Of a stretch of 64,000 bases of DNA, positions 6,136-29,189 are shown piece by piece (positions within the stretch are counted from its first letter, which is position 1; the number at the start of each line of letters is the position of its first letter). The notes under the pieces are model-generated. The model worked only from the letters and a program-made list of their open reading frames with translations. It searched no databases and was not told the DNA's origin. The position numbers were made by a program, and so were the translations under genes. This stretch comes from Candidatus Poribacteria bacterium (GTDB taxonomy: Bacteria; Poribacteria; WGA-4E; PCPOR2b): assembly GCA_965208325.1 (NCBI GenBank), contig OZ242326.1, forward strand, positions 1,376,001 through 1,440,000. The letters are read 5' to 3'.

Positions 6136-8523
6136 ATGAAACGCTTAATTTTACTGTTTCCATTTTTTGTTTCACTGATTATTTGCATAGATGGCCGTTC
6201 CGAATTGCCTCACCAGTTTCTGTTTGGGCATACACATCGCGTGCTTGCGATTGATTTCAGCCCAGATGGGCAGTGGCTTGCCTCCGGCGGCGATGGTGAA
6301 AATAACAAATATGAAATTTACATTTGGGATGCCGCGACAGGCGACCACATCTATACGCTTAACGGGCACACCGGCCAAATAATGGACCTTGCTTTCCGGA
6401 ATAATGGCAATCTTGCATCGGCTTCTGTAGACGGAAGTCTGCGGTTATGGGACGTTGGCGCGCAAGAAGAGATTCGCCAGTTTTATGGACAACAGGACGG
6501 GTTGACATCAGTAGCTTTTTGCTCTGAGGGAAAATGGCTGGCTGCGGGTTCGATTGATAAGGTGCTCAGATTATGGGAAGTTGATACTGGCCGGCTAATT
6601 TCGACTTTAGAAGGACATGGCGCTACCATCTGGGCCGTAGCATTCAGTCCCGATGGCGAAAGGATAGCATCCGCGTCAGAAGACCGAACTGTTCGTCTTT
6701 GGAATGCTCCGGACAGCGATGGAAACCTGATAAATCAAACACCGACCAATATCTTTACCGGACATACAAACCGCGTTTGGTCTCTGGCATTTCACCCTAA
6801 TAAAAATCTGGTTGCTTCAGGGTCATGGGACCACACAGTGCGCGTTTGGGATGCTAATGCAAGCAGCGAGGAAGCTGTCTTTCAGTCCCCCTTCGCAATG
6901 TACAATCGCGAAGTACTTTCGCTTGGCTTTAGTCCGGAAGGGAGATTGCTAGCGGTAGGGTTGCGCCACGTCGAGAACGACAACCCGCTAAAACTGTTGG
7001 ACTTCACATCGGGCAGCACACTCAGATCGTTCGACTCGAAATCGCGGCATGCATTGGACTTTAGTTTCGATGGATTTCGATTGGCCACCGCGGGAGCAGT
7101 TGATGGCACAATAATCATATGGAACTCCAGCCATTTGACCCCTACGCTTAACCATCCCGATGACGGCGATCTCATTGAAACGGCGCAAATTACCCTAAGT
7201 TGGGAGGCAGTCGAAGACTCGGTTTATTACGATGTTGAAATCTCCGACAATCCAGACTTTATGGAGGAGACTAAACTAAAAACGGTTACAGAAAGCCAGT
7301 TTGACTTTGAAGTCAACGGAGAAACACCAGCCTATTGGTGGCGTGTCCGTGCGGGCAGCCTCGGACAGGTCGGCGAATGGTCTGAACCTAGGTCGTTTAG
7401 CATACCGTTTGAACCACCCCTTACCTGCGACGTTTTAATCCTGCCGCCGCGCCGCCAAGTAAATTTGGGGGAGGAGTTTCATATAGAAGTTAAAATTCAT
7501 TCTGCAATAGATCTCGCAGGATTTCAGTTTGATCTTCAATGGACGAATCCCAATGTTCTCAATCTAGTCACGGTTACCGAATTCAGGAATATTTTTGGTG
7601 AATTTGGGCGTGGCAAAGCCGTTGATATTAATCGGGATCTGGGCGTGTTCAGAGATGTTGTTGCAACCAAACTTGGCGCAGGTGGTGTGAGCGGAAGCGG
7701 CACGCTGTTAAAAATGTTGTTCAGTGGCAAAGGCATCGGCACAAGTACCATTCGATTAAATAATCTCAAACTTGTCAACTCGGCAGGGGAACAGATTCAC
7801 TGTAATATTTACAACTCACAGATTGAGGTCGCAGATCCAGCAAGACCGTGGGATGTAAATGGAGACGGAATTGTTGACGTTTTCGATCTCAGCACGGTTG
7901 CGAAATACTTTGGAAAAGAAATTACTGTGGATTTGGGGCTGAATCCTGACGTCAACAGTGACGGAGTTGTCGATCTCAAGGACATAGTTCTTGTTGGAAA
8001 CTACATTGGTGAATCCTATCTGATGGACGGACAAGGAACCTCTGCTGCACCGCATTTCCACCAGACGAAGGAAGTGTACATAGCATCCCGCCATCGACCG
8101 ATTTTATTACCAAAAACACGCAATGCGCTAGAACGTATCTACACAATTTTGCAGCACAGTCCTGATAATTCTTTACCATTTGTTCGTACAAGACAGGTTT
8201 TACGTCATCTGTTGTCATCGGTTTCGCCTAGCCAAGATATATTATTTCAAAACTATCCGAATCCGTTCAATCCGGAAACATGGATTCCTTTCCAGCTTGC
8301 CGCAGACGGGGATGTGACAATCATAATTCACGATGTTAATGGAACACTAGTCCGTAAACTTGCGTTGGGCCATGTCGAAGCTAGTTCGTACATCAGGCGA
8401 ACTGATGCGGCCTATTGGGATGGGAGGGATCGATGGGGTGAACCTGCCGCCAGCGGTGTATATTTCTACACCATCTCAACGCGGTCATTCAAGGCTACTC
8501 GGGCTATGACGATTGTGAAATAA
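6136..8523 (+). CDS. Secreted WD40 + Fn3-like + cohesin + dockerin protein with T9SS-A/FlgD-like C-terminal domain
   Basis: Signal peptide; about 7 GH...WD repeats; cohesin-like DLAGFQFDLQW...GSGTLL; duplicated dockerin loops DVNGDGIVDVFDL / DVNSDGVVDLKDI; LFQNYPNPFNPETWIPFQL...YWDGRD...SGVYFY tail. Confidence 0.85.
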   Translation: MKRLILLFPFFVSLIICIDGRSELPHQFLFGHTHRVLAIDFSPDGQWLASGGDGENNKYEIYIWDAATGDHIYTLNGHTGQIMDLAFRNNGNLASASVDGSLRLWDVGAQEEIRQFYGQQDGLTSVAFCSEGKWLAAGSIDKVLRLWEVDTGRLISTLEGHGATIWAVAFSPDGERIASASEDRTVRLWNAPDSDGNLINQTPTNIFTGHTNRVWSLAFHPNKNLVASGSWDHTVRVWDANASSEEAVFQSPFAMYNREVLSLGFSPEGRLLAVGLRHVENDNPLKLLDFTSGSTLRSFDSKSRHALDFSFDGFRLATAGAVDGTIIIWNSSHLTPTLNHPDDGDLIETAQITLSWEAVEDSVYYDVEISDNPDFMEETKLKTVTESQFDFEVNGETPAYWWRVRAGSLGQVGEWSEPRSFSIPFEPPLTCDVLILPPRRQVNLGEEFHIEVKIHSAIDLAGFQFDLQWTNPNVLNLVTVTEFRNIFGEFGRGKAVDINRDLGVFRDVVATKLGAGGVSGSGTLLKMLFSGKGIGTSTIRLNNLKLVNSAGEQIHCNIYNSQIEVADPARPWDVNGDGIVDVFDLSTVAKYFGKEITVDLGLNPDVNSDGVVDLKDIVLVGNYIGESYLMDGQGTSAAPHFHQTKEVYIASRHRPILLPKTRNALERIYTILQHSPDNSLPFVRTRQVLRHLLSSVSPSQDILFQNYPNPFNPETWIPFQLAADGDVTIIIHDVNGTLVRKLALGHVEASSYIRRTDAAYWDGRDRWGEPAASGVYFYTISTRSFKATRAMTIVK

Positions 8524-8626
8524 CTCTGCTCGCGAACTTCCGATTCGCAGGTTTTCACATAGAAATTCAGTACTTCCTCTCCATTTTAGCGGGGTCCGGT
8601 GGATTAGCGCAGTAACACATGCCAGT

Positions 8627-11600
8627 ATGACGGGACGATGCTCCATGTATTATAGGTTACGGCGACAATCTATCAAATATACCTTATTCGCAGTTTGGCT
8701 TTTGAACTTCTTCGAGTTTTGCCTTTTGCCCGCGCCCGCCCAACAGACCTTCCAATGGCGCAGCTTCACACGAATCCACGATGGACTCAGCAGCAACAAT
8801 GTTCGGTCGATCGCAGAAGACAGCTTCGGACAGATTTGGCTTGCGACGAGCAGCGGTTTGAGTTGTTTCAATGGTTTCTGGCATGTAATTGAAGTTTCAA
8901 TCGGCGATTCGAGCAGTAGTGATATTAATCATATTTTTAGCGATATAGATGGGTTCATCTGGGTGATGACTAGTGGGGGCGTCTTTCAAGGGATGCCGCG
9001 CAATGGCGGGATGGATTGGGTGCATCACTACACTACGGCTGATGGGTTAATCGACAATTCGATTACGGCAGCCGTGCGGCGCCAGAATGGCGAGATTTGG
9101 GTTGGAACGCCTTCTGGCGCCAACTGGTTCGATGGGAACAGGTGGCGTGCTGCGCCAAATGCTGAAGAAGGCAGTGTTAACAAAGGCGTACGTGTCGTTT
9201 ATGAAGATAAAATGGGTAATTTGTGGTTTGGGCTTTCACGGCCAAACCGCCCTTACTTAGTTAGCCGTTTTGACGGCGCCGAGTGGGAGGTTTTCCGTAT
9301 TGAGGACGGATTGCCGAACGGCGATGTAGAAGCGATTACATCCGATCCCTTGAACAACATTTGGGTCGGAACGACTGAGGGGGCAGCGATTTACGACGGT
9401 ACAACTTGGCAGATTATAACTTCGCCGGAACTAATCGGCAACAACGTCCAGTCCATAAAAATTGACGTTGAAGAAACAGTGTGGATTGGCACCAGCGTGG
9501 GAATCAGCTTGTTCAGCCGCGGAAGATGGAGGCATTTGACAAAGGGACACGGGTTGGCGAGCAACAATATCCAGACGCTGTTTGAATCACGGGACGGTGG
9601 AATTTGGGTGGGCACACGAGATAACGGTGTCAGTTTCACCGATAGATTGTGGAGATCGATTACGACAAATGACGGATTGAGTGATAACCAAGTGACATCA
9701 ATGTTGACGGATGGCGGCGGGACAACGTGGGTAGGCACTCGCAACGGATTGGTTCGGTATAGCGGCAGGAAAATCGAATCGGTAGAAGAGCTACTGGGGC
9801 GCGACATACGCGTGCTCGCCGAAGACGCCGAGGAGCGCCTTTGGGTCGGTACAGACTCGGGCATTGTGGTATTTAGTCCAATAATTGCGGATGAGCCTTC
9901 CATATGGCGGCATTTTCGGAGAGCGGATGGGCTAAAAAATGACAGCGTTCAATCTTTGGCCGTTGACGCAGCGGGTGATGTTTGGGTGGGTACAGGAATT
10001 TTGCTTGCCGATGAACCGGGCTTCTTCCCCGGTCTAGATCGATTTGATGGTGACCAATGGCATGCTGAAGAAGACATTTTTCAGGAATTCGGCGAAATAG
10101 TCGCCGTGATGTATTCAGATTCACGAGGGCGTCTGTTTTTTGGCACTGTTGGCGACGCTGCAAGCGATGGCGAGTTGTGGGTTTACCATGGAGGAATTTT
10201 GAACCGGATCAGCCCTAATATTAGCGGATCCATCAATGCTATTATGGAATCTTCCGACGGCAGCATATGGATTGGGACAAGTGATGGCATCCTAATTTTA
10301 GATGGAGAAGCGCTGCAGCAGACGAATCGACTGACGACTGATGATGGATTGGTAGATAACCGTGTACAAGCGCTATTCCGGGATGAACCCGATAGAATGT
10401 GGATTGGCACGGTTGATGGGGTCAGTCTGTTTCAGACCAATCGATTTGCGCGCTCAATCACGGCAAGCGACGGTTTAAACAGCAATAACATCTCCGTCAT
10501 CATCAAACCGGCTGATGGCGTGCTCTGGTTTGGGAGTAAGGATAACGGCGGCGTCAGCCATTTTAATCAGGAGATGATACCGCCAACCACGCGCATAATC
10601 GAAGGTCCCACAAACGGTGAAATTGTTGGAGATACGAGCGTTATCTTTAAGTTTGAAGGAGGAGATCTTAGCACGCCAACCCGAGAACTACGCTATCGAT
10701 ACAAACTTGATGGCAACCTACCAATGCCTACCGATGACGACGGTTTTTCGAATCGTGTTTCGCTGACAGGCCTGGCGGAAGGCGGCCATCGATTCATCGT
10801 TCAAGCGATAGATCGAGAGGAAAACCTGGATCGGCTTGGTGCGCAGGCAGAATTTATTATCGATTCGAAACCGCCAACTGTTCTAATAACCAATCCGAAG
10901 CGCGGCGCGGTCATCAAGGGAGTTTATGGAATCGAGGGTAGCGCGACCGATATGGATTTTCACGATTACGAGATTCAGATTTCGGGTCAATCTGTGTTCA
11001 CCTCAAACCAACCTGTGGACAGAAATACGCTCTATCGGTGGGATACGCAAACCGTACCTGACGGCACATACAATATTCGGCTCACAGCGAGAGATACACC
11101 AAACGGCGACTATGACCGCGAACATCGCGCCGAGGAGATGATATCCGTCGAAGTAGACAACACCTTACCCGGTGCAAAAATTAAGCAGCCGTTACCTGAA
11201 GCTACAGTTACCGGAGAAACCGAGGTTGAAATTGAACTGACCGACCTTCATCTGATGAGCTATCGGTTAGAATTCACACGTGCGGCATCGAAAACTGACA
11301 CGCCGGAAGAGATTACATCGGGTTCAATCTCCGACAGCCCATTATCTATTGTGAAACAGGTACCGTGGAATTCATCAACCGTGTATGGCCATGTAATGCT
11401 TCGGGCAGCAGTTGCAGATGCAGCCGGAAACGAAGGGGTGTCAGAAGTTGTTCCCATTTTCCTCGACAATGAAGGCGCTAAGCCAGTTGTTGAGATTCAT
11501 CGGCCGAATGGAATTAATCCGATCTCGAAGGAAACAGCCGTTACCGCAACAGTCGGCGTTGGCACAGCGCCCGACACCTTTATTGAAAACATAAGCCTCG

Positions 11601-14050
11601 AATACCGACGTGTAGATGACCTCCAGGGTTGGAAGCCGCTGCGCGGCGGCCGTCTAACTTTGAATAACGAAGAGATTACACGATGGGACACTACTGCGCT
11701 CCCTGACGGCGAATATCTGTTACGACTATCCGCAAAGGACAGCAATGGATATTCGTCAAATTTCGAACGGAAGGTGTTTTTGGATAATACGCCGCCGACG
11801 GGCATCATCAGATTCCCGCAAGATGGGGATGTTCGAAAAGCCGAACGTATAGACGTAATTGGTACGGCGACGGATGAAAATTTCGAAGGCTTCGAGCTAG
11901 AATATTCTGTAAATGGCGAAACATGGATACTGATTCCAGGATTGAACACCTCGGTTGAATCGGAACGACTGGGAAGCTGGAACGCGGCAGCCTTACCCGG
12001 CGGCGCTTATCTGCTGCGTCTCACAGTCGTCGACAAGGCGGGTCTAGAAACAACGACAGAGGTAAGCGTGGTACTTGATGACTCGGATGTTATTTCGTTA
12101 ATTACCTCACCTAAGCAAGATGCATACGTCAGCGGTCAAGTAAGAATTACGGGCACAGCTAACGATCCAAATTTTAATCGATTTCATTTGGAATATCGGC
12201 TTGCAGGCGTAAATGGTGCATGGCGGCCAATTCCAGACCTATTCAGTCCCGATAAACCGAAAGAAAACGAACCTCTCGCAGATTGGAATACGCCTCAGCT
12301 CGATGAGAAATACGAAGTCCGATTGACGGCTTTCGACGATTCGGGAAAGAGTGAAACCCACATCGTTCCGGTGCATGTTGATAATCTTAAGCCAAGCGCA
12401 CATATTATCAAGGTTCAATCGCGGCATGCGGAATCTCAAGCTTCGGGGATACTATCGGGTGAAATCGAAATTTTCGGTGAAGCAACCGATGTCCACTTCA
12501 AAGACTTTCGCCTAGATTTTCGCCCTACCGATTACAGCGGCGATTGGCAACCGATTCCCGTGCTGAATTCCACAAGACCTCGACGGAACACGACACTCGC
12601 TATTTGGAGGAATACGCCCCAAATTGACGGCGAGTACGAAATTCGCTTGGAAGTTGAGGATAAATCGGGCAAGTCAAATCCGGCTTTTATGCGCGTTGAA
12701 ATTGACAACCAATCTCCGATTGTTGAAATCTCTCAGCCTAGTCATCGCCAGTTGGTGTTCACCACCATTGAAATTATCGGTACGGCGAGCGATAAATATC
12801 TCGAAGCCTATCAACTAGATTTCAGAGCAGAGGGGACCGCCGAGTGGCAGCAGATAATTCGCGCTACCCATCCCAAGGAAGCAGCGGTATTGGGAGAATG
12901 GGAACCCCCGATGGTAGACGGCGGGTATGAAATCCGCTTGCGCGCTTTCGATTTTGATGGGTCAAGGCAGCCGAGTGAGTCAATCGTACAGGTCCTCGTC
13001 GATAGGTTGCCGCCGCAAGCCGAAATACACTCTCCTACGGCGAATCAACAGCTACCCCGAAAGGTTGACATTCTGGGAACAGCGGACGATCTGAATTTCA
13101 ATGGGTACGTTATCGAATACAGCGGCGGGCAATCACCCGATATCTGGCGGCCGATATCCAAAACGGGGTTTTTGAAGCCGGTGAACGAAGGGCTCCTGGC
13201 AGAATGGAGTGTCCCGGAATTATCGTCTGGCGAGTATTCTTTGCGGTTGCGTGTAGAGGATGGCGCCGGCCATGAGAGCGCCACGTCTGTCAAGGTGTTT
13301 TTCCGCGAGCGCGTGGAGCGCCAAAATAATAGTGTTGTGCAGAGTGAAGATGGAATCGCCAGAATTGTTTTCCCGCCAAACAGCTTGCCAGAATCGACGT
13401 ACGTGACTATAAATCCAGTTCAATCTGCGAATGGGCCGTCCTCAGCCTCCAGCGATGAGATGTTGAACGGCGGCGGATCGCCGAATGTCATTCCGCGCTT
13501 CGATACAATCTACAATTTTGAACCGGCAAATTTGCAACTTCACCGCCTTAAACCTGCAACGATAGAGTTTGCCGTGCAAGAACTTACACCGGCCATGCGA
13601 AATGAAGCATTAACAATTTCTCACTGGGATGGCGCGCGGTGGAAACCCATCGGCGGCACAATCAATGAGCGGCAGGGCACGATTTCGACTGTTGTATCAG
13701 GTTTAGGGCAGTACGCCGTAACAACAGCACCTCCTGTGGAAATTGACGGCGACGTAATCATCGCTGACTTAACCTGCCAACCGCGCCTCTTTTCGCCAAA
13801 CAAAAACGAATCAACATCAATCTCGTTTCGATTAAATCAACCTAGCAATGTCACGGTGCGAATCTACAATGAGGCAGGACGGCTGCGGCGGAATCTAAGA
13901 GAATCAGAACAGCTTTCAACGGGGCGGCATGTCTTTTGGTGGGATGGGCGCGACGACGATATGCGGCGGGTTGTCAGCAACTTTTACATTGTTACGGTTG
14001 AAGCTGAAGGAGCGTTAGCGCGAAAAGCCGTTATCGTACAGAACAATTAG
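8627..14050 (+). CDS. Giant secreted protein: two-component-regulator propeller repeats + Y_Y_Y-like domain + about 8 tandem Ig-like repeats + FlgD-Ig-like C-terminal domain
   Basis: Many GL(S/P)xNxVxxIxxDxxGxIWVGT repeats; LRYRYKLDG...GHRFIVQAID; eight roughly 100-aa repeats (IxxP...GTAxDxxF...LAxW...GxYxIRL...VxVDN); PRLFSPN...VRIYNEAG...WWDGRD tail. Exact start uncertain. Confidence 0.85.
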   Translation: MTGRCSMYYRLRRQSIKYTLFAVWLLNFFEFCLLPAPAQQTFQWRSFTRIHDGLSSNNVRSIAEDSFGQIWLATSSGLSCFNGFWHVIEVSIGDSSSSDINHIFSDIDGFIWVMTSGGVFQGMPRNGGMDWVHHYTTADGLIDNSITAAVRRQNGEIWVGTPSGANWFDGNRWRAAPNAEEGSVNKGVRVVYEDKMGNLWFGLSRPNRPYLVSRFDGAEWEVFRIEDGLPNGDVEAITSDPLNNIWVGTTEGAAIYDGTTWQIITSPELIGNNVQSIKIDVEETVWIGTSVGISLFSRGRWRHLTKGHGLASNNIQTLFESRDGGIWVGTRDNGVSFTDRLWRSITTNDGLSDNQVTSMLTDGGGTTWVGTRNGLVRYSGRKIESVEELLGRDIRVLAEDAEERLWVGTDSGIVVFSPIIADEPSIWRHFRRADGLKNDSVQSLAVDAAGDVWVGTGILLADEPGFFPGLDRFDGDQWHAEEDIFQEFGEIVAVMYSDSRGRLFFGTVGDAASDGELWVYHGGILNRISPNISGSINAIMESSDGSIWIGTSDGILILDGEALQQTNRLTTDDGLVDNRVQALFRDEPDRMWIGTVDGVSLFQTNRFARSITASDGLNSNNISVIIKPADGVLWFGSKDNGGVSHFNQEMIPPTTRIIEGPTNGEIVGDTSVIFKFEGGDLSTPTRELRYRYKLDGNLPMPTDDDGFSNRVSLTGLAEGGHRFIVQAIDREENLDRLGAQAEFIIDSKPPTVLITNPKRGAVIKGVYGIEGSATDMDFHDYEIQISGQSVFTSNQPVDRNTLYRWDTQTVPDGTYNIRLTARDTPNGDYDREHRAEEMISVEVDNTLPGAKIKQPLPEATVTGETEVEIELTDLHLMSYRLEFTRAASKTDTPEEITSGSISDSPLSIVKQVPWNSSTVYGHVMLRAAVADAAGNEGVSEVVPIFLDNEGAKPVVEIHRPNGINPISKETAVTATVGVGTAPDTFIENISLEYRRVDDLQGWKPLRGGRLTLNNEEITRWDTTALPDGEYLLRLSAKDSNGYSSNFERKVFLDNTPPTGIIRFPQDGDVRKAERIDVIGTATDENFEGFELEYSVNGETWILIPGLNTSVESERLGSWNAAALPGGAYLLRLTVVDKAGLETTTEVSVVLDDSDVISLITSPKQDAYVSGQVRITGTANDPNFNRFHLEYRLAGVNGAWRPIPDLFSPDKPKENEPLADWNTPQLDEKYEVRLTAFDDSGKSETHIVPVHVDNLKPSAHIIKVQSRHAESQASGILSGEIEIFGEATDVHFKDFRLDFRPTDYSGDWQPIPVLNSTRPRRNTTLAIWRNTPQIDGEYEIRLEVEDKSGKSNPAFMRVEIDNQSPIVEISQPSHRQLVFTTIEIIGTASDKYLEAYQLDFRAEGTAEWQQIIRATHPKEAAVLGEWEPPMVDGGYEIRLRAFDFDGSRQPSESIVQVLVDRLPPQAEIHSPTANQQLPRKVDILGTADDLNFNGYVIEYSGGQSPDIWRPISKTGFLKPVNEGLLAEWSVPELSSGEYSLRLRVEDGAGHESATSVKVFFRERVERQNNSVVQSEDGIARIVFPPNSLPESTYVTINPVQSANGPSSASSDEMLNGGGSPNVIPRFDTIYNFEPANLQLHRLKPATIEFAVQELTPAMRNEALTISHWDGARWKPIGGTINERQGTISTVVSGLGQYAVTTAPPVEIDGDVIIADLTCQPRLFSPNKNESTSISFRLNQPSNVTVRIYNEAGRLRRNLRESEQLSTGRHVFWWDGRDDDMRRVVSNFYIVTVEAEGALARKAVIVQNN

Positions 14051-14053
14051 CGA

Positions 14054-16210
14054 GTGACATCCGTTTCAATGATATGGACTTCCAAAACTGTCTTGACAAA
14101 ACCGGGGACACTTCGCATAATATCCACGATGCGATGCTGTTTTTTTATAATCTTCATGTTCACGTCGGCGAGTGCAATTTACGCCCTCGAAGAAAGAGCG
14201 TCTACCGGCGTGCGTGCCATCGGCATGGGAGAAGCGTTTATCGGTGTCGCCGACGATGAGAACAGTGTTCGCAGAAATCCCGCGGGACTTGTCCGATTGG
14301 ACAGATACGCCCTCGGATTTGAACAGACGCCATCGAAGTTGTTCGGTGTGTTGGAAACCAACTGTCTCAGCGCAGTCTTGCCAGCGTCGGAAAAAATTGC
14401 GTTGGGTATGGATTGGACCCAAGTCGGGATTGTGGATGAAGAACTCGATTCAAGGCGCAGCAGTTTTAACTTCTCCTACAGCTACTATCCATTGTCCCTA
14501 CTGTCGATTGGGGCAAACCTGAAATACCTGACATGGGGCATTACGCTCGATAAGCAATCTGAAGGCAACGCCACCGGATGGGGAACGGACGTTGGCGTAC
14601 TTCTTCAACCAAACCGCAGTTGGACATTTGGATTCTTGGTGCAGGATTTTATCGGTTTTGGAGCTGGACATGGCTTTAGCCGCGACACATGGATGCGCCA
14701 CGACACCGGGGTAAGCGAAAGAGTATTCCCGACAAGGTATAAACTGGGAGCGGCTTATCGGCCCATACCCAATTGGCTCATTGCCGCGGATGTCACGGAC
14801 CGCATCCATGTGGGTGCAGAGTTTCTGCCATACGCCAATTTTGCTATTCGCGCCGGAATCCAAAAAGATTTGGCATCGCTTGAATGGCCGAGTTATTCGT
14901 TGGGTGGACGCGTAACATATCGATGGTTGGATTTCAACGCCGCGTATCTCATTCCCCCAACCCTGCCGCCAACAGTTTATGTTGGTCTTTCGCTCAACAT
15001 AGATTTTCGGCGGTTGCCGGTGCGGATTGAGCAGGTTCGTATAAAAGACCTCTATCCGGTCCATTATAATTACTACGCTTCGCCAAATAGGGAGGTGGAA
15101 ATCATTTTTTTGGAGGAGCCTATCACGCCGCCGGTTTTCACTGACGCCGACCGGGATCGGTACTATCCACTAATGCCGCTAGATTCAATCGGCAGGATCT
15201 GGCTAAAAAATGAGAGTAACAAACCGGTGACTGTCAGGATTGAACTGTTTATTGAACAGTTTGTCGGCCAAGACGGCACGGTAGTTGCATCTGATATTGA
15301 ATTGGAACCCTTAAAGCGGGTTTCTGTGCCAATGCGCCAGCTCGTTTTATCACGCGACGCCCTAGCGTTAACCCAAGCACAGCCTGTCGAAGCGAGAGTC
15401 AAAGTCATCGAGAGCGGTGGAAGTGCATACCGGACTGACACTGTCACTTTAACGTTACACGGCAACCATACAACACGGCTGGATGATGTCGCCAAACTCG
15501 GATCATTCATCTCCTCTGAAGATGCGGCAATTCAAGCCTTTATAAATTCCATTCGTACTGTATTTAACGACAGGATTGCATCAAACACGGTTCCGCGCAA
15601 TTTGTATACGGCTATGCTATTGTTTAACGCCTTGCATGGGGTGTCTTATGCGATTGATCCGAATATACCGGGTGCAAGCGGCACCATAGACGAGATCAAA
15701 TACCCCTTCGAGATGCTCGAACGCCTCAAGGGGCAATTCAGCGGGGATGGCGGAGTTCATGCTTTCGGAGATTGCGACGACAGTACGGCGCTATATTGTT
15801 CGCTGCTAGAATCGGCCGGGATACAGACAGCACTCATCCAGCTTCCTAACCATGTGATGATGGCGTTCGATTTGGGGCAAATTTCTCTCGATTGGGCGGA
15901 AGCGGTAGATTTGCCTGATAGTCACTATCAGCCCATTAACGGGCAGGTTTGGATTCCCATTGAGACAACGCTTATCAAAGACGGATTCATCGCGGCGTGG
16001 CAAACGGCAATTGAAGAAATTCGAGCAAAAGGGGTTATTGACTCGTCTACGGTTGAAGACGCCTGGGCGAAATACGGAGCGAGTTCCTTGCGCGGAGCGG
16101 AAAGACACTTTTCTGTTCCTGAAACTCGAATTAGATCGCGGATAGACGGCGATTTAGCACATCCGTGGTTTCAGGGTTTTTTGGAATTTTTCTCTCAGGC
16201 GCCACCATAG
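14054..16210 (+). CDS. PorV/PorQ-like outer-membrane beta-barrel fused to a transglutaminase-like domain
   Basis: GVRAIGMGEAFIGVADDENSVRRNPAGL (PorV/FadL-like start) and alternating beta-strands; C-terminal GDCDDSTALYCSLLESAGI...NHVMMAF...WIPIETT. Likely start ATG 14129. Confidence 0.75.
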   Translation: MTSVSMIWTSKTVLTKPGTLRIISTMRCCFFIIFMFTSASAIYALEERASTGVRAIGMGEAFIGVADDENSVRRNPAGLVRLDRYALGFEQTPSKLFGVLETNCLSAVLPASEKIALGMDWTQVGIVDEELDSRRSSFNFSYSYYPLSLLSIGANLKYLTWGITLDKQSEGNATGWGTDVGVLLQPNRSWTFGFLVQDFIGFGAGHGFSRDTWMRHDTGVSERVFPTRYKLGAAYRPIPNWLIAADVTDRIHVGAEFLPYANFAIRAGIQKDLASLEWPSYSLGGRVTYRWLDFNAAYLIPPTLPPTVYVGLSLNIDFRRLPVRIEQVRIKDLYPVHYNYYASPNREVEIIFLEEPITPPVFTDADRDRYYPLMPLDSIGRIWLKNESNKPVTVRIELFIEQFVGQDGTVVASDIELEPLKRVSVPMRQLVLSRDALALTQAQPVEARVKVIESGGSAYRTDTVTLTLHGNHTTRLDDVAKLGSFISSEDAAIQAFINSIRTVFNDRIASNTVPRNLYTAMLLFNALHGVSYAIDPNIPGASGTIDEIKYPFEMLERLKGQFSGDGGVHAFGDCDDSTALYCSLLESAGIQTALIQLPNHVMMAFDLGQISLDWAEAVDLPDSHYQPINGQVWIPIETTLIKDGFIAAWQTAIEEIRAKGVIDSSTVEDAWAKYGASSLRGAERHFSVPETRIRSRIDGDLAHPWFQGFLEFFSQAPP

Positions 16211-16436
16211 AACACAATCGGGTGCAATTGGTTTGTAGGTTGATTTTTGGCCAAGTTGATGTGCGGCGCCCGGAACGGTTAACACCGTACGAACAGTTTT
16301 TGAATTACCCGCTCTAGCCAACTCACAAAGACTACCATAAATTGTCTATCCCCCAGCAGAACTGCGGGTGATTGTTGATTTCCATGTGGCGTTACGTTAG
16401 CCACACATTTTTTTACACCAAAGGAGGACAACTACC

Positions 16437-17336
16437 ATGAAGCGAAAATACCCTATTCTTCTCACAATTTGCTGCTTGTTCGTGATTGCGGCTAATCCCG
16501 ATTCGCAGGCAGAAGATACGGTAACCGCCACATTCACCTTTGGAAAGATTGAGGTGCTTAAATCCGGTGAACGGGAATGGGCTTTTTTGGAAAAAGGTGC
16601 GGTCTTGAACAACAGTGATCTCGTGCGTATGCCGCCGTACTCGTTAATTCGGCTAAAGGATGCGGACGAGATGCTTTTACCGACGCTTCCGGGCGGGCGT
16701 GAACTGCCTATCAGCGTTTTAATCGAGGAGGGGCGCCTACGTAGGAATGAATTCAAAGGCAAGCGTGTTAGTGCGCCATTTGACAGCCGCCCTACAATTG
16801 ATGTGCTGCCGCTTGGCAACAGACCAAAAGGGGAAAACCGCTTCAAGGCACCTGCCGCAGCTCAACCAACGCCACTAATGCGGGGTGAACTGGAAGCGCT
16901 TCGCCGCGAACTCGACTCGCTTCCTGAAGAATTTGTGCCTTTCATCTCTCGAAGTCTCCTGCCGGATAATCATGCGACGACAGATGCGTATCCCAGCACC
17001 AATCTATCTGGCGCGCTTACCCTTTATCGCGACACGCTCAGAGAAATTGAGGCGAAAACGGAAGCGACTTCAAATCGTTCGCTCTTGTACGCCCAACTGC
17101 TTGGCCGGATTGAGATTGGTGCAGATCTTGTCGTGAACGGCAAGGGGGACCTTTTCGTTGTGTTTGATAGCGGTGTTCCCGTCAATGGGAGTAAACAGAT
17201 TACCGCCAATCATCAGCTCATTCATCATAAATCGGGGACAGATACCGTTTGGATTCCTCTTCAGATTACGCCTCGTCGACATAATTTCACAACCGCATGG
17301 TATACAGCCGGACGGAACCTGGAGGCCGGACTATAG
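16437..17336 (+). CDS. Exported protein with FecR-like N-terminal domain and degenerate transglutaminase-like C-terminal domain
   Basis: AAGGAGG RBS and signal peptide; GKIEVLKSGEREWAFLEKGAVLNNSDLVRM (FecR-like); C-half aligns by eye with the TGase domain of 14054..16210. Confidence 0.65.
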   Translation: MKRKYPILLTICCLFVIAANPDSQAEDTVTATFTFGKIEVLKSGEREWAFLEKGAVLNNSDLVRMPPYSLIRLKDADEMLLPTLPGGRELPISVLIEEGRLRRNEFKGKRVSAPFDSRPTIDVLPLGNRPKGENRFKAPAAAQPTPLMRGELEALRRELDSLPEEFVPFISRSLLPDNHATTDAYPSTNLSGALTLYRDTLREIEAKTEATSNRSLLYAQLLGRIEIGADLVVNGKGDLFVVFDSGVPVNGSKQITANHQLIHHKSGTDTVWIPLQITPRRHNFTTAWYTAGRNLEAGL

Positions 17337-17408
17337 TAGTGGAAAATAATCGGTTGATATGGACATGCTAGGAAAAACAGATACACTAGGTCTGTTTGGA
17401 GGTTCGTT

Positions 17409-19427
17409 TTGTTCCGCGTTTTCCCCGATACGCATCAATTTATGTCCTTCAAATGGGTTCGTGTACAGAAAACATATCTGCTCATCGCGTCCGTGAGCCT
17501 CTTGCCGTTTATGGTAATGGGGCTGTTGCGCGAGTTTGAACTATTTGAGTTTATAGAACTACAAACACTAGATGGACGGTTACGCTTGCCGTCTATACAA
17601 CGACCGCAAATTTCTCGCCAAATTTCGCTCATTACGATTGATGCTGAAAGCGAAGAAATTATTCAGCCGCTCCCGTGGCCGCCTCCCATTTATGCTTCGC
17701 TGCTAAACTACCTTCAAGAAGCGAATCCCAAGGCAATTGGCTTAATCGCTTGGTTCAACCGCGAATGGCCGGGGGATCAACACATCCCCCGTGATAAATT
17801 GTTCGCCATCCGACCTTATACATCAGTAAGCAACACCGGAAATCGACGTGCTTTTCCGGAGGTCACGAATTGGAACCAGTTGCCTCCCAGCTTGCAAAAC
17901 GCGCAAGACTCAAGTTTCAGCGAGTTTGCCTTGAACCGTTCCGATGGTATCTACCGTTCAGCCCAACTCGTCGTCAAACAGGCCGCGGAAGAGGAATACC
18001 GCTACTCTCTCGAAATGTTAATTCTGTGTCAAATCCATGGCGTTCCAGTAACATCAATAAAGGTCAAAGAAGATTTTTGGAGCGGTAAATTTCTACAATT
18101 GTCACGTCCGTCCGGCGCACCAATTCGGATTCCTATTGATTTGCAAGGCAGGCTGTTCCTGAGATTTGCCGGAGACATTTCCGATTTTCAACCCACCTCG
18201 TTCATTAAAGCATTAACCCAGTCTGAATCAGACATGCCGGGATTCCGGCAGAAATTTGAGGGGAAATCAGTCCTAATCGGCATTACAACGGTTAGCGCCC
18301 CGCAGGCTTCGACGCCATTCGGAAAAATGTCTGCACTCGCACTCCGCGCGAACTTGCTTAACGCCCTGCTGAATCAAGATTTTATCCGGCGGTTGAGCGG
18401 CAAGGCAAACCTTCTCTATCTAGCATGTTTTGGTATCGCTGCCGCTATGGCAACCGTTCTCATCAGCAGAACCGGACAGAGCTACAGATTGATGTTACTC
18501 ATCGCATGTGGATTGCTGTTCCTGCATTTCCTTATTGCTTTTGCAATGATTGTGCTATACAACATTTGGATTGAGTTAACTGGAACCAGCCTCGCCCTTA
18601 TCCTGTGCGGTGTAGGGAGCAGCTTTTTCCTAGCGCATTTTCGACTGCGTCAGCTTTTCTCGCAGTTACAGACGACGCGGGAAGAACTTGTCAGAGCCGA
18701 AAAAGAAGCAGTTTTTGGAGTGATGTCCGCGCGGGTACGGCACGAACTGCGAAATGCCCTGAACCTAGTTCGTGCACCTGCAGAGATGATTCGAAACAAT
18801 TTCCAGAAACAAGATCCCTTGAAATTACGGGACCGCCCTGAAGAAATCATCGGCGAAATGGATGGAATCATTGACCGGGTTACAAAACTGGATGAAATGA
18901 TTGAAAATGAACTCAGCTTCTTTCAAAACACACAGTACAATCTTCAACAGCAAGAACTAGGGCCGATTCTGAAATCTGCGTCGGAGATGGTGGAACCGTT
19001 GATTACCGACAAACAAATTAATGTACAGTGGAATTATCCAAGTGACACGCGGAAACTCTCCGTTGACGCTGACAAAATGCGAATCGTCTTCGCGAACCTA
19101 ATAAAAAACGCTTGCCAAGCTATGACGAAGGGCGGCGAATTAGAAATCGCCATTGAAACACCGTACGAATCTTCCTCAAAATCCGTAACCTCCGTCCTAA
19201 TCAGGGATACCGGGGCTGGCATCCCCCCCGATGAACTAGAGCGGATTTTTGAGCCTTTTTACACGACAAAACCGCGTGGATTGGGGCTCGGATTGGTTAA
19301 TGTCAAGAATATTGTCGAGGGACATGGGGGAGAGGTACGTGTGGAAAGCGTAGTCGGCACCGGAACGACATTCTTGATCCAACTACCTGCAGTTCAAGAA
19401 AAGGAGAAAACGTCAATGGGGACATGA
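17409..19427 (+). CDS. CHASE2-domain sensor histidine kinase
   Basis: N-terminal TM; ELQTLDGR...ISLITIDAES...WP, DGIYR, KSVLIG, TPFG (CHASE2 motifs); three TMs; RHELRNAL H-box; NLIKNA, DTGAG, FYTTK, GLGLGL. Confidence 0.9.
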   Translation: MFRVFPDTHQFMSFKWVRVQKTYLLIASVSLLPFMVMGLLREFELFEFIELQTLDGRLRLPSIQRPQISRQISLITIDAESEEIIQPLPWPPPIYASLLNYLQEANPKAIGLIAWFNREWPGDQHIPRDKLFAIRPYTSVSNTGNRRAFPEVTNWNQLPPSLQNAQDSSFSEFALNRSDGIYRSAQLVVKQAAEEEYRYSLEMLILCQIHGVPVTSIKVKEDFWSGKFLQLSRPSGAPIRIPIDLQGRLFLRFAGDISDFQPTSFIKALTQSESDMPGFRQKFEGKSVLIGITTVSAPQASTPFGKMSALALRANLLNALLNQDFIRRLSGKANLLYLACFGIAAAMATVLISRTGQSYRLMLLIACGLLFLHFLIAFAMIVLYNIWIELTGTSLALILCGVGSSFFLAHFRLRQLFSQLQTTREELVRAEKEAVFGVMSARVRHELRNALNLVRAPAEMIRNNFQKQDPLKLRDRPEEIIGEMDGIIDRVTKLDEMIENELSFFQNTQYNLQQQELGPILKSASEMVEPLITDKQINVQWNYPSDTRKLSVDADKMRIVFANLIKNACQAMTKGGELEIAIETPYESSSKSVTSVLIRDTGAGIPPDELERIFEPFYTTKPRGLGLGLVNVKNIVEGHGGEVRVESVVGTGTTFLIQLPAVQEKEKTSMGT

Positions 19428-19504
19428 GTGCATCGGTTCATAGCATTCAAAATGTACCGTTTGAGCTATGGATCCTTGGACTTGCGCTTCGCGTTTAACG
19501 ATAC

Positions 19505-20950
19505 ATGAATCCATCACGCATTTTAATTGCAGACGACGAACACGCAACCTGCAGCTACATCGACAAACAGATCAAAATGGAATCGTCGATTGATGTTACG
19601 GTGGACTTTGCCTACGACCGGGACGAGGCAATGGCGCTATTGACAGGCAATTCCAACTATAATCTAATTATAGTCGATCTCTGGATGCCGGATGCAGGAG
19701 GCATTTTAGATAGAGAAGCGGGGTTGAAAATCCTTAAACACAGTAAATCTCGGCACCCGGCACCGCAGGCAATCGTCATCACCGCGAACATTTCGTCGAA
19801 GACTGCGCTTGAAGCGAGCGGTTTAGGCATCTACGACTACATCAGCAAGCCAATTGACTACACCCACCTAATTAACATCATCAAGGGGGCGTTAAATCAA
19901 AGCAACAGCGATGCGCTTGATTGGGAGCCTTCCTCTACCGCGCATTTAGAAGAAACCGATGCCCACGAAATCGTCGGCAGCAGTAACGCGATGATTGAGG
20001 TGATGAAAAAGGTTGGGAAAGTTGCGCTTTCGGACGTTGATGTCTTAATCTATGGAGAGAGCGGTACCGGTAAGGAATCCGTAGCGCACGCCATTCATGC
20101 GCTCAGCCCTCGCGCGAAAGGGCCATTCATAGTTATGAACTGCAGCGCCATTCCGGCGGAATTAATCGAAGCGGAATTATTCGGGATAGGGAAACGGGTT
20201 GCAACAGCCGTTGACCAACGTCCGGGGAAATTTCAGCAGGCGGATGGCGGCACAATTTTGCTCGATGAGATTGGTGATTTGGACCTTGCCATGCAACCCA
20301 AGCTGTTGCGCGTACTAGATTCGAAGGAACTTCAGGGAATCGGGATGGATGTTCACCGTGTCAATGTGCGCGTTATCGCCGCTACCAATCGAGATCTCCG
20401 CGCGGCAGTGGAAGCAGGTAGCTTTCGAAGCGATCTCTATTATCGCCTGAAATTCATGATTACTTTACCTCCGCTGCGTGAGCGCGAGGGCGACATTCGG
20501 ATGCTTGCATCGTATTTCCTGAATAAGTTTCTGCGCCTGCCGGAATCGGGGCAAATCCGCGGATTTGACGAGACTGTCTTGTCGGCGTTTGAGCGGTATC
20601 AATGGCCAGGCAATGTCCGTGAATTGGAGAAAGCCGTTCAATATGCGGTTGTCACTTGTACAGGAAATCAGATATTGCAAGAAGATTTACCCCCTGAAAT
20701 CTTCAGTGCGCCAGAAGTAGAAACGCTCGGGTTGCTCCCAGACCGGGACACTACTCCTATACGCAGCTTACTCAACGTCCCAACAATTAAGGATGCCACC
20801 CAAGGCTTCGAGAAAATCTTTCTGGAACACAAACTCAAACAGAATAACTGGAACGTCCGGGCAACTGCCCTACAAATTGGAATCAAGCGCCAGTCATTGC
20901 ACCGCAAAATTAAGGAGCTCGGTCTGAAGCGAAACGAAAATCAGACGTAA
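19505..20950 (+). CDS. NtrC-family (sigma54-type) response regulator: REC-AAA+-Fis HTH
   Basis: IADDE / VDLWMP receiver; GESGTGKE; LLDEIG; LYYRL; WPGNVREL; C-terminal HTH. The L1 loop reads RVATAV instead of GAFTGA. Confidence 0.92.
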   Translation: MNPSRILIADDEHATCSYIDKQIKMESSIDVTVDFAYDRDEAMALLTGNSNYNLIIVDLWMPDAGGILDREAGLKILKHSKSRHPAPQAIVITANISSKTALEASGLGIYDYISKPIDYTHLINIIKGALNQSNSDALDWEPSSTAHLEETDAHEIVGSSNAMIEVMKKVGKVALSDVDVLIYGESGTGKESVAHAIHALSPRAKGPFIVMNCSAIPAELIEAELFGIGKRVATAVDQRPGKFQQADGGTILLDEIGDLDLAMQPKLLRVLDSKELQGIGMDVHRVNVRVIAATNRDLRAAVEAGSFRSDLYYRLKFMITLPPLREREGDIRMLASYFLNKFLRLPESGQIRGFDETVLSAFERYQWPGNVRELEKAVQYAVVTCTGNQILQEDLPPEIFSAPEVETLGLLPDRDTTPIRSLLNVPTIKDATQGFEKIFLEHKLKQNNWNVRATALQIGIKRQSLHRKIKELGLKRNENQT

Positions 20951-21046
20951 GCCCAGGCGATGCATTATTGACCACCATCTAGGACGCTACGACAATAGAC
21001 ATCATTCCTAATTTACTCAATGTGGTTGACAAAACCGAAGCGTTAC

Positions 21047-21071
21047 GGGCAACCACAAGGGTTGCCCCTAC
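21047..21071 (-). repeat. GTAG-family REP-like palindrome
   Basis: Minus strand reads GTAG-GGGCAACC-CTTGT-GGTTGCCC, a perfect 8-bp stem after GTAG. Confidence 0.65.
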
Positions 21072-21103
21072 AGCGTATTAGCCCAACGTGAGGGTAGTCG
21101 TTT

Positions 21104-21179
21104 TACACCTGCCGCCCCGCTGGGGTTAGATGTTGATGTGTAACAGTGACTTCTATATACCTGTCGCCCCTTTGGAGCT
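21104..21179 (+). repeat. Tandem 24-bp intergenic repeat pair (period 52)
   Basis: TACACCTGCCGCCCCGCTGGGGTT (21104) and TATACCTGTCGCCCCTTTGGAGCT (21156); the same module occurs inverted at 44624-44699. Confidence 0.65.
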
Positions 21180-21347
21180 ATCGGGCGGTGGAATAATTTT
21201 GGGAAGATGTCTAATACAAAAAATTCCAATTCGTTGGCTTACAAAACCGTTCATGTGATTTTTTTAGAGTGCTCTATTGCATTTAAAACGAAGATAGGGC
21301 GGTGTTAAAGGAAGCAGTCTGCATGACGACCCAATCCTGCATCCCAA

Positions 21348-21384
21348 TGTCGCTTCAGGGCGACAGTGTAGTTTATGGGTGACA
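21348..21384. promoter_or_regulatory. Tandem TGT-N12-ACA palindromes, putative enhancer (UAS) for an NtrC-type activator
   Basis: TGTCGC-TTCAGG-GCGACA (21348-21365) followed by TGTAGT-TTATGG-GTGACA (21367-21384), 140-180 nt upstream of a -24/-12 promoter. Confidence 0.55.
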
Positions 21385-21525
21385 GAAATTCGAAATCAAA
21401 TGCGATTACAGCCGGCTGATGATGGCAGGTTGAAAATGGTATAGAATCGCTGTTTTGCGCCTAATGTAGAACATCCAACCTAATTTCACTTTTTTTTATT
21501 CATTTTCGAAGCCGCCGTCTATCGC

Positions 21526-21540
21526 TGGCACACATCTTGC
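21526..21540 (+). promoter_or_regulatory. sigma54 (-24/-12) promoter of the sigma70-family gene
   Basis: TGGCAC-ACATC-TTGC, a full match to TGGCAC-N5-TTGC, preceded by an A/T tract (about 21481-21506) and 78 nt before ATG 21619. Confidence 0.8.
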
Positions 21541-21618
21541 CTATGTAATTCAATGAAATCCTTCTCCTACCAGAACTTATGACCGAATATCATCATTGAT
21601 ACAGGAGCGGCTCGATAG

Positions 21619-22827
21619 ATGAATCAATCATCTCAAATCTCCGCTGAAGCGTCCGTTAAAAATTGGTCACCACAATTTGAATCTGTGCCCGCAGATTTGG
21701 GTATACAACCGGAATCTTTTGCACAAGCATCAAATATAAGTCCGGAGCAAGACGCCGTTGCAACGGAGGATGCGGATGGGGCCATTAGACCACCCTTGGA
21801 TTCCGACTGCGAGAAAGACGCGCGCGGCGGCGTTCTGCACACGTATCTTTCCCAGATGGGAGATTACGCGCGTTTGACGCAAGACGAAGAATTAGGTATC
21901 TTTTTCAAGATAGAGAAGTATCGCAAGCGCATCAATGAATGCTATGAAGAATTGATGACATTTCCGCTCGAGATAGATGCGGAAGATTTGCCAAGCCCGC
22001 GCTCGTTGAAAAAATTGATTGCCGCTAAATCTTTTGTTCCGCCCACACAAGAGTTCCTTTTGGAACTTGTGGGACATATCCAATTTCTGCAAGCGGAAAT
22101 CCACACTGCCAAAAACCGTGTTGTTGAGGCTAACCTGAGATTGGCGGTCTGTATTGCCAAGAAATACCAAGAGCGCGGACTAGATTTGCCTGATCTCATT
22201 CAGGAGGCAAATATCGGGTTGATTAACGCTGTCGATCACTTTGATTGGCGGCGCGGTGTGAAGTTTAGCGCGTGCGCTTCTTGGTGGATTCAGCAAGCCA
22301 TCGGGCGCAGCATTGCAAATCATGGGCGGACGATTCGCATCCCGTCGCACCTACTCAGCGACATTAGTAAAGTGAATCGTGCGAAAGCACGTTTTTTTCA
22401 AAACACCAACCGTGAACCCAATCCAAAAGAAATCTCTGAAGCAACCGGGCTTTCAGCCAAAAAGATAACGGAATTGAATCGGATTTCGGCGGATTCCATG
22501 TCCCTGGAAGACTGCATTAGTCCAGACACGGGCGGTGAAGTTGAAGTGCTAGTTCCATGCGAACAAGCATCGGATCCCCTAACGGGCGTGATTACGAAAA
22601 GCCTAATTGAAGAGGTTAATCTGGCAATCGGCGCATTGCCGCCCCGTGAGAAACAGATTGTCTTTTTGAGATACGGTCTAGAAAACAGCGAAGAACACAG
22701 TTTACAGGAAATAGGGATGATGTTGAACCTGTCACGAGAACGGGTTCGGCAATTGGAAGCCAGGGCGTTGAGTCGGCTGCGCCATCCCTCTCGGAGCGAT
22801 AGACTGAACGATTTCCTCTTTTCGTAA
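21619..22827 (+). CDS. RpoD/RpoS-like alternative sigma70 factor (regions 1.2-4)
   Basis: YLSQMGDYARLTQDEE (1.2), VEANLRLAVCIAKKY, DLIQEANIGL, WWIQQAI, RTIRIP, LQEIG...LSRERVRQLE; AGGAG RBS. Confidence 0.9.
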   Translation: MNQSSQISAEASVKNWSPQFESVPADLGIQPESFAQASNISPEQDAVATEDADGAIRPPLDSDCEKDARGGVLHTYLSQMGDYARLTQDEELGIFFKIEKYRKRINECYEELMTFPLEIDAEDLPSPRSLKKLIAAKSFVPPTQEFLLELVGHIQFLQAEIHTAKNRVVEANLRLAVCIAKKYQERGLDLPDLIQEANIGLINAVDHFDWRRGVKFSACASWWIQQAIGRSIANHGRTIRIPSHLLSDISKVNRAKARFFQNTNREPNPKEISEATGLSAKKITELNRISADSMSLEDCISPDTGGEVEVLVPCEQASDPLTGVITKSLIEEVNLAIGALPPREKQIVFLRYGLENSEEHSLQEIGMMLNLSRERVRQLEARALSRLRHPSRSDRLNDFLFS

Positions 22828-29023: not shown

Positions 29024-29129
29024 ACAACTTCGCTCAGTTGAACGTTCAAAGGTTTACAGCAGGGCAATATATTTACGGTTTCTACATAAACCAAAATTTT
29101 AGGTCACGGAGGTGAACCACCCGCCGCAC

Positions 29130-29151
29130 GCGCAACAAATTGCGCTACTAC
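29130..29151 (-). repeat. GTAG-family REP-like palindrome
   Basis: Minus strand reads GTAGTA-GCGCAA-TTTG-TTGCGC. Confidence 0.55.
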
Positions 29152-29189
29152 AAACGGAACCGGCTAAGTCCTAGATTTTAAAAGTGCTT

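Follow-up and report, generated by a model that had tools for sequence, protein, structure and literature searches.

The DNA analysed here, 64,000 nucleotides of a Candidatus Poribacteria genome (assembly GCA_965208325.1, contig OZ242326.1, positions 1,376,001 to 1,440,000 of the forward strand; this whole stretch is called the window below), contains a block of seven genes lying on the same strand, from 6136 to 22827. The third gene of this block encodes a fusion protein in which an N-terminal half related to the PorV/PorQ family, and predicted to form an outer-membrane barrel, is followed by a transglutaminase-like half with a Cys-His-Glu set of residues. The gene set to which this fusion belongs also encodes a giant propeller, a small partner that is secreted and a CHASE2 sensor, and we found it in at least four phyla, with a varying CHASE2 output. 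The source genome is a single contig of 4.7 Mb. On both sides the block is flanked by unrelated metabolic genes, and no tRNA or Rfam match was found within the window. The features of the block, in window coordinates, are the following:

6136..8523 (+): WD40 beta-propeller protein with a T9SS (type IX secretion system) type A C-terminal domain (CTD), first gene of the block (Pfam WD40, E 8.8e-63; TIGR04183, 24.9 bits for a cut-off of 23)
8627..14050 (+): giant protein of 1807 amino acids, a secreted Reg_prop propeller with immunoglobulin-like (Ig) domains and an FlgD_ig/T9SS-type CTD (Pfam, NCBIfam)
13331..14050 (+): specialised C-terminal module of the giant, its last 239 amino acids (own-genome search and cross-phylum homology)
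14054..16210 (+): fusion gene, an open reading frame (ORF) of 718 amino acids when counted from GTG 14054
14129..15010 (+): predicted PorV/PorQ-family outer-membrane barrel, residues ~26-319 (matches to PorV_fam and to a solved PorV)
15011..15490 (+): linker and probable beta-sandwich domain, residues ~320-479 (included in the C-half profile and conserved across phyla; fold predicted from the sequence pattern)
15491..16033 (+): transglutaminase-like (papain-fold) Cys-His-Glu domain (hhalign; GDCDD, His600, Glu637)
16437..17336 (+): secreted partner of 299 amino acids, a predicted pseudoenzyme paralogue of the Cys-His-Glu domain (profile and hhalign)
17409..19427 (+): CHASE2 sensor histidine kinase (Pfam CHASE2, 2e-27; HATPase_c, 1.1e-25)
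19505..20950 (+): sigma-54-dependent response regulator of the NtrC/AtoC type (Sigma54_activat, 2.2e-57; Response_reg; HTH_8)
21526..21541 (+): sigma-54-type promoter, TGGCAC-N5-TTGC (motif match, 78 nt before the next gene)
21619..22827 (+): sigma-70-family sigma factor (Pfam Sigma70_r2/r3/r4)

The WD40 gene opens an operon that is conserved in Poribacteria, and it occupies the same position at six other loci (L116, L119, L124, L001, L002 and L011; loci are numbered L, genomes G, contigs C and families f).

The fusion gene and its two halves

An initial annotation had read ORF 14054-16210 as a PorV-like barrel fused to an intact transglutaminase-like domain, and the motifs on which it relied were all recovered: RAIGMGEAF (residues 54-62) and NPAGL (75-79) in the N-half, then, in the C-half, GDCDD with Cys574 (codon 15773-15775), NHV with His600 (15851-15853) and WIPIETT (residues 633-639) with Glu637 (15962-15964). 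The same annotation had the gene begin 3 nt after the stop codon of the giant, which is correct for the longest ORF (GTG 14054) but not for ATG 14129. The latter is likely to be the true start, since many homologues begin at a methionine equivalent to residue 26, yielding a normal Sec signal peptide, and since the top sigma-70-like promoter match of the region (14093-14121 (+), TTGACA-17-CATAAT, 11/12) ends at 14121, within the longest ORF and 8 nt before this ATG. Sigma-70-like matches in the fusion region are no commoner than in shuffled sequences, that is, they occur at chance level; if this one is real, the fusion gene would be transcribed from a promoter of its own, into a message almost without a leader.

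We found 96 homologues of the fusion protein at E<=0.001, nearly all of them full-length. The closest, at 84-94% identity, come from Candidatus Poribacteria assemblies, and full-length relatives at 27-32% identity are present in assemblies titled Neomarinimicrobiota/Marinimicrobia, Gemmatimonadota and others. Judged by these full-length relatives in Poribacteria and other phyla, the fusion is old and conserved, and no accident of assembly.

The N-half matches the NCBIfam model PorV_fam (NF033709) at E 2.8e-16 with 60 bits, the curated cut-off being 90, and the profile of the N-half family matches a solved PorV (6h3i_F) at E 8.2e-8, over profile positions 25-175 and 229-291, last strand included. 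One orthologue (L005) passes the PorV_fam cut-off (105.7 versus 90 bits) and two others (L003, 79.5 bits; L014, 71.7 bits) stay below it, the L003 protein spanning positions 12-326 of the 326 in the model. These matches bear out the PorV-like barrel of the initial annotation: on sequence grounds the N-half is homologous to the PorV/PorQ family of the T9SS, and a barrel fold is predicted for it. PorV and PorQ each stand alone, at about 330-400 amino acids (321-391 for the ORFs found here), whereas the fusion adds an enzyme module of ~400 amino acids. The last barrel strand of the fusion is aromatic-terminated (VYVGLSLNIDF) and the chain continues beyond it. Both chain ends of outer-membrane barrels face the periplasm; as the C-half comes after the last strand, we infer that it is located in this compartment.

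The C-half escapes Pfam, with no match at E<=1 in any of 26 aligned members. Between 243 aligned module sequences and 30 genuine Transglut_core proteins from the phylum, hhalign gave a probability of 92.8% (E 3.9e-7, 114 columns), with GDC falling on the catalytic GDC and WIPVETT on the acid-bearing WVxMDPT strand; comparison of the C-half with one Transglut_core protein of its own genome gave 78%. Domain architectures were scanned for 28 of 150 listed members of the C-half family; two of the 28 reach the cut-offs set by Pfam itself for PF04473 or PF01841. For the Cys-His-Glu domain, an ESM feature search placed a cluster that is 58% Transglut_core at rank 2, with a score of 0.90. A sequence-profile search of solved structures with the C-half returned a single match, at E 0.87, which was dismissed as junk. 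Each of 243 relatives keeps GDCDD, His600 and Glu637, a count that carries some ascertainment bias since these are the best-scoring matches to a profile containing the motif. Such comparisons support the membership of the C-half in the transglutaminase-like superfamily. The intact Cys-His-acid site announced by the initial annotation thus holds at the sequence level, as does the conservation of the cysteine among homologues, on which that annotation had made its proposal depend.

With the superfamily (PF01841 and PF04473, including LapG-type enzymes), the C-half shares the GDC, the acid-bearing strand and the invariant Cys, His and acid. It differs in being unseen by Pfam models in the case of the window protein, in having its own invariant GDCDD, and in a long insert between the histidine and the acid. 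Analogy with most bacterial superfamily members leads us to favour a thiol peptidase over a transglutaminase or a deamidase.

The module is not confined to the fusion. Searched against 1.84 billion representatives, the C-half profile retrieved 3659 proteins at E<=0.001 and 1664 at E<=1e-30, which would define a large family of predicted thiol enzymes with an invariant site and without Pfam coverage. In the 28 scanned members, the domains found N-terminal to the module are PorV-like barrels, Reg_prop/Y_Y_Y propellers joined to it directly (7 of 28), NHL, ankyrin, nSTAND2 NTPase and CsgG/LpoB-like domains, and a TPR array is usually present on its C-terminal side. C-half modules also match positions 11-311 of the NCBIfam model NF058533, 'anti-phage protein ProA', at E 5.2e-11 for L005, E 2.2e-16 for L177 and, weakly, E 3.8e-5 for the window protein. 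ProA has 1903 amino acids; the likeness is confined to its N-terminal ~310 residues, and all module scores are far under the cut-off of 1500. A literature search found no paper on ProA, and neither the C-half nor the small partner had a match in PADLOC. In two proteins, P0152 and P0148, the GDCDD module is fused to an nSTAND2 NTPase or to ankyrin repeats. Such fusions, along with the likeness to ProA, raise the possibility that the module also serves in conflict systems.

The gene that follows the fusion encodes a relative of this module. In a search of the genome with the C-half profile, the small partner at 16437-17336 was matched at E 5e-8, and hhalign aligned the C-half with the small-partner family at 98.2% (E 4.4e-14) over 130 columns, in which Cys, His and Glu are all replaced. 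By these alignments the small partner is a conserved paralogue of the enzyme domain, predicted to be catalytically dead. It follows the fusion in 11 further Poribacteria loci. Its N-terminal domain has no Pfam match at E<=1. A FecR-like nature of this domain was suggested by a rank-29 feature match only (score 0.82) and is not claimed. Kinship of the small partner with PorN/GldN was considered because four solved PorN/GldN chains appeared at E 0.007-0.05; hhalign of the small-partner and C-half alignments against 15 GldN proteins gave less than 1% for both, and we judged these matches to be due to chance. The PorN core has been called a new fold, in the part of the source available (PMC8861641).

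In other phyla, a different small secreted protein of 149-172 amino acids follows the fusion, unrelated to the Poribacteria partner (hhalign <=1%). These proteins (L003:12697-13152, L006:12771-13226, L008:3644-4093, L010:4430-4879 and L005:12561-13079) share an AGVRG.EAED motif and a TPR-like tail, and could be substrates or adaptors.

Is the C-half an enzyme at all? It might act as a non-catalytic scaffold or assembly factor that only binds, for instance the giant in transit or peptidoglycan, its conserved residues then serving binding or stability. Many proteins with a transglutaminase fold are inactive, the paralogue encoded next to the fusion is conserved in spite of having lost all three residues, and most relatives carry TPR arrays. 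However, GDCDD, His and Glu remain invariant across many architectures (243/243), unlike in the dead paralogue next door, which is the pattern expected of an active site, and we regard a pure scaffold as quite improbable.

CHASE2 sensors and regulators next to the fusion

The CHASE2 domain at 17409-19427 is the sole match for this domain in the 4.7-Mb genome, and it lies two genes downstream of the fusion. Its periplasmic part corresponds to residues ~42-335 of the kinase. Of 151 sampled genomes of the phylum, 44 carry the C-half and 46 carry CHASE2. Tallied by family, the two counts are identical save in f5 (3/5 for the C-half versus 5/5 for CHASE2), and both are 0/100 in f3. All 44 genomes with the fusion have the CHASE2 match 950-1600 nt downstream of it, on the same strand of the same contig (as computed from two location tables). 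PorV-family barrels, for their part, are present in 151 of the 151 genomes: the fusion thus tracks CHASE2 and not the secretion system.

The association extends to other phyla. CHASE2 stands beside the fusion at 4 of 4 places in the phylum of L005. For the phylum to which the Ignavibacteriaceae genome G152 belongs, the figure is 17 of 21 places, with CHASE2 within 1.2-6 kb. The fusion is seldom found in the phylum of L003 (2/61). At all ten adequately flanked loci, window included, a CHASE2 gene lies within two genes of the fusion. Across loci the constant elements are the periplasmic CHASE2 domain together with the GDCDD module; as CHASE2 output, histidine kinases, class III cyclases, SpoIIE phosphatases and fused sigma-54 AAA+ activators all occur.

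Two variants deserve mention. CHASE2 is fused directly to a sigma-54 AAA+ activator beside GDCDD-module genes at L176:2726-5515, L179:7917-10352 (-) and L175:7026-9702; these proteins would be membrane-bound enhancer-binding proteins, and the L175 gene is apparently split or frameshifted. At Marinimicrobia-type loci, the CHASE2 cyclase gene is preceded by a short STN and secretin gene (L003:1407-2732, L004:1586-2911, L006:1513-2856) and by a small gene with a weak T2SSB-like match.

What CHASE2 senses has been obscure since the domain was defined. It is a widespread sensor domain, and the only input pathway traced in the available parts of our sources runs through NsrA in one rhizobium. As far as these parts go, the CHASE2 adenylate cyclases CyaD1, CyaD2 and CyaK of Sinorhizobium meliloti depend on the outer-membrane barrel NsrA (PMC13001267), and Campylobacterota possess CHASE2-cyclase clusters (PMC9239204). 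The likeness to our loci, compared by description and not by sequence, is that of a CHASE2 sensor beside, or dependent on, an outer-membrane barrel; the available parts of both accounts mention no PorV-type barrel, thiol-enzyme domain or giant propeller partner. A literature search found no paper combining CHASE2 with type IX secretion or PorV with transglutaminase-like proteins, and a search for CHASE2 with transglutaminase gave nothing relevant.

Downstream of the CHASE2 kinase, 13 of 14 Poribacteria loci have the sigma-factor gene after the regulator gene, and in 9 of 14 the same sigma-54 motif is found between them. This motif is not enriched across the window (21 seen, 32 expected), so that only its conserved position counts. 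The sigma-factor gene is a probable target of the sigma-54 regulator, and the order of regulator, promoter and sigma gene suggests a cascade running from a sensor to a sigma factor.

The giant propeller protein and the secretion apparatus

The giant encoded directly upstream of the fusion matches Pfam Reg_prop (5.7e-50), Big_7, Big_13 and FlgD_ig (34.1 bits). Its propeller part resembles PorZ, the NCBIfam model T9SS_PorZ scoring 74.6 bits (cut-off 260), and its end matches the CTD model TIGR04183 at 23.6 bits (cut-off 23). In the T9SS attachment complex, PorQ holds PorZ, a beta-propeller protein with a C-terminal domain; the fusion and the giant are alike in that a barrel is partnered by a CTD-bearing propeller protein.

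The C-terminal module of the giant is of two parts: the first ~150 amino acids are unique in the genome, and the last ~80 are a generic CTD. When the genome was searched with this module, only the giant itself matched over the full length, and 20 other ORFs matched positions ~150-237 only. In other phyla, however, the FG-GAP giants encoded before the fusion end in homologous C-termini, over the last ~240-300 amino acids (E 2e-26, 8e-24, 7e-22, 3e-20 and 5e-18). A giant propeller gene is found directly upstream of the fusion at each adequately flanked locus, with Reg_prop repeats in Poribacteria and FG-GAP repeats elsewhere. A module that is unique in its genome and yet homologous across phyla beside the fusion supports a private pairing of giant and barrel.

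Poribacteria seem to carry a divergent T9SS-like apparatus. The source genome (G000:C1) has a divergent SprA-like ORF of 2196 amino acids and two PorU-like ORFs of ~2100 amino acids (the three at 3091331-3095149 (-), 4022499-4027856 (+) and 3715233-3719957 (-)), all under curated cut-offs, and more than 45 CTD tails. The GldM and GldN models had no match in this genome, a result of little weight given that the controls were silent too.

These elements bear on a proposal of the initial annotation, in which the fusion is a dedicated shuttle amounting to a one-protein analogue of the attachment complex: the barrel would bind the CTD of the giant, and the thiol enzyme, as a built-in sortase, would remove this CTD or cross-link the cargo, replacing PorV and PorU. 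A barrel of the PorV family, encoded directly after a CTD-bearing giant whose C-terminal module travels with the fusion across phyla, in a genome with SprA-like and PorU-like ORFs and many CTD tails, is what such a shuttle would look like. The enzyme half, however, does not resemble PorU (no match to the PorU model NF033707 at E<=0.01), and the two PorU-like ORFs are separate genes. PorU acts at the cell surface, where CTD removal occurs, whereas the enzyme half is expected in the periplasm. The fusion is also not universal where the secretion system occurs: unlike canonical PorV, it is under the curated cut-off, present in 44 of the 151 genomes only, and tied to a CHASE2 sensor. A shuttle would leave the dead paralogue and the CHASE2 gene unexplained; a CHASE2-linked copy in family f4 has no giant, and the enzyme module also occurs without a barrel, attached to propellers, ankyrin repeats or a STAND NTPase. 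We retain the private link with the CTD of the giant; the one-protein attachment complex itself we consider unlikely. The same annotation had also envisaged an enzyme that generates the signal, and this is compatible with the CHASE2 linkage.

Another precedent is LapG, a transglutaminase-like cysteine peptidase of the periplasm, which frees a giant adhesin from its anchor in the outer membrane. By comparison with it, the C-half could be a barrel-tethered periplasmic thiol peptidase that cuts the giant or its anchor, the CHASE2 pathway regulating or reporting this release. The giant does look like an adhesin or a receptor, and the acidic GDCDD cluster could, speculatively, bind calcium as LapG does. 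Several observations disagree with this scheme. The C-half has no match to the LapG family or to any other Pfam family, and no gene for a GGDEF, EAL or LapD-like cyclic di-GMP receptor is found among the operon proteins, so that neither the peptidase family nor the receptor of the LapG/LapD/LapA system is recognised here. CHASE2 receptors with cytoplasmic outputs fit outside-in signalling rather than inside-out control, and the CTD anchor of the giant would be outside the cell, not in the periplasm. A release switch of this kind appears doubtful.

A candidate envelope-spanning sensing module

We propose that the fusion is the outer-membrane part of a conserved and previously undescribed sensing module spanning the envelope, a reading to which we would give a probability of about 55%. 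After export, the giant would be anchored at the cell surface through its C-terminal module, which would sit on the dedicated barrel much as PorZ does on PorQ. The enzyme half would hang in the periplasm, after the last barrel strand, and by acting on or binding a partner there would let CHASE2 receive the state of the surface receptor. This partner could be the CHASE2 domain itself, the dead paralogue encoded at 16437-17336 or, while the giant is in transit, its C-terminal module. The periplasmic enzyme and the dead paralogue would together couple the state of the giant to CHASE2, from which the signal would pass to the histidine kinase, the sigma-54 regulator, the sigma-54 promoter and finally the gene for the sigma-70-family factor. 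A link between giant and enzyme is also supported by the 7 of 28 scanned relatives in which a Reg_prop/Y_Y_Y propeller is fused straight to the enzyme module. As far as the available parts of these reports go, a functional precedent exists in the NsrA/CHASE2 cyclases of S. meliloti and the CHASE2 clusters of Campylobacterota.

A number of observations weigh against the sensing module. The fusion protein of the window falls short of the curated PorV_fam cut-off (60 versus 90 bits), and the register of the catalytic histidine is ambiguous in the hhalign alignment with the Transglut_core proteins. Some contexts of the enzyme module (ankyrin, nSTAND2) are probably cytoplasmic, so that it is not intrinsically a CHASE2 partner. 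In the G152 phylum, CHASE2 is missing from the neighbourhood of four of the 21 places (one of them on a short contig) and, conversely, CHASE2 is present without a detected fusion in the Poribacteria genomes G008 and G013 and in G308. In family f4, a CHASE2-linked fusion lacks the upstream giant and a second paralogue has the giant and the WD40 gene but no CHASE2, so that the giant, the fusion and CHASE2 are separable. The split sets L125 (G063:C21) and L127 (G080:C39) apart from L117 and L122, the CHASE2-linked paralogue keeping the small partner, the kinase and the regulator. Genomes within a phylum are kin, and counts overstate independent support; the shift of output domain and gene order between phyla is for this reason a stronger argument than the counts. 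Finally, the contacts within the module, the geometry of the triad, the barrel fold and the periplasmic location are all predictions, and the outside-in direction of information flow is an assumption.

A broader idea, which we put forward tentatively and with the odds against it, is that CHASE2 commonly reads a protein partner and not a small molecule. The GDCDD module on its PorV-derived barrel would then relay the ligand state of a surface propeller, and a periplasmic proteolytic or binding event would switch CHASE2 kinases, cyclases, phosphatases and sigma-54 activators alike. A protein module found beside CHASE2 genes in several phyla, whatever their output, is in any case a concrete candidate for feeding these sensors. 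The locus would also provide an example, predicted from sequence, of a PorV-type barrel whose role lies outside general type IX secretion. If the sensing module is real, a part of a secretion system has been re-used as a cell-surface signalling device across many phyla.

Two further observations concern the surroundings of the block. At 24596-27541 (+), a protein of 981 amino acids joins an N-terminus of the extracytoplasmic function (ECF) sigma type (Sigma70_r2, r4_2) to a BNR/Sortilin-type propeller, an unusual architecture. At 27560-31355 (-), two adjoining genes encode PQQ/BamB-like propellers; with the WD40, Reg_prop and BNR propellers, this makes the region rich in proteins of this kind.

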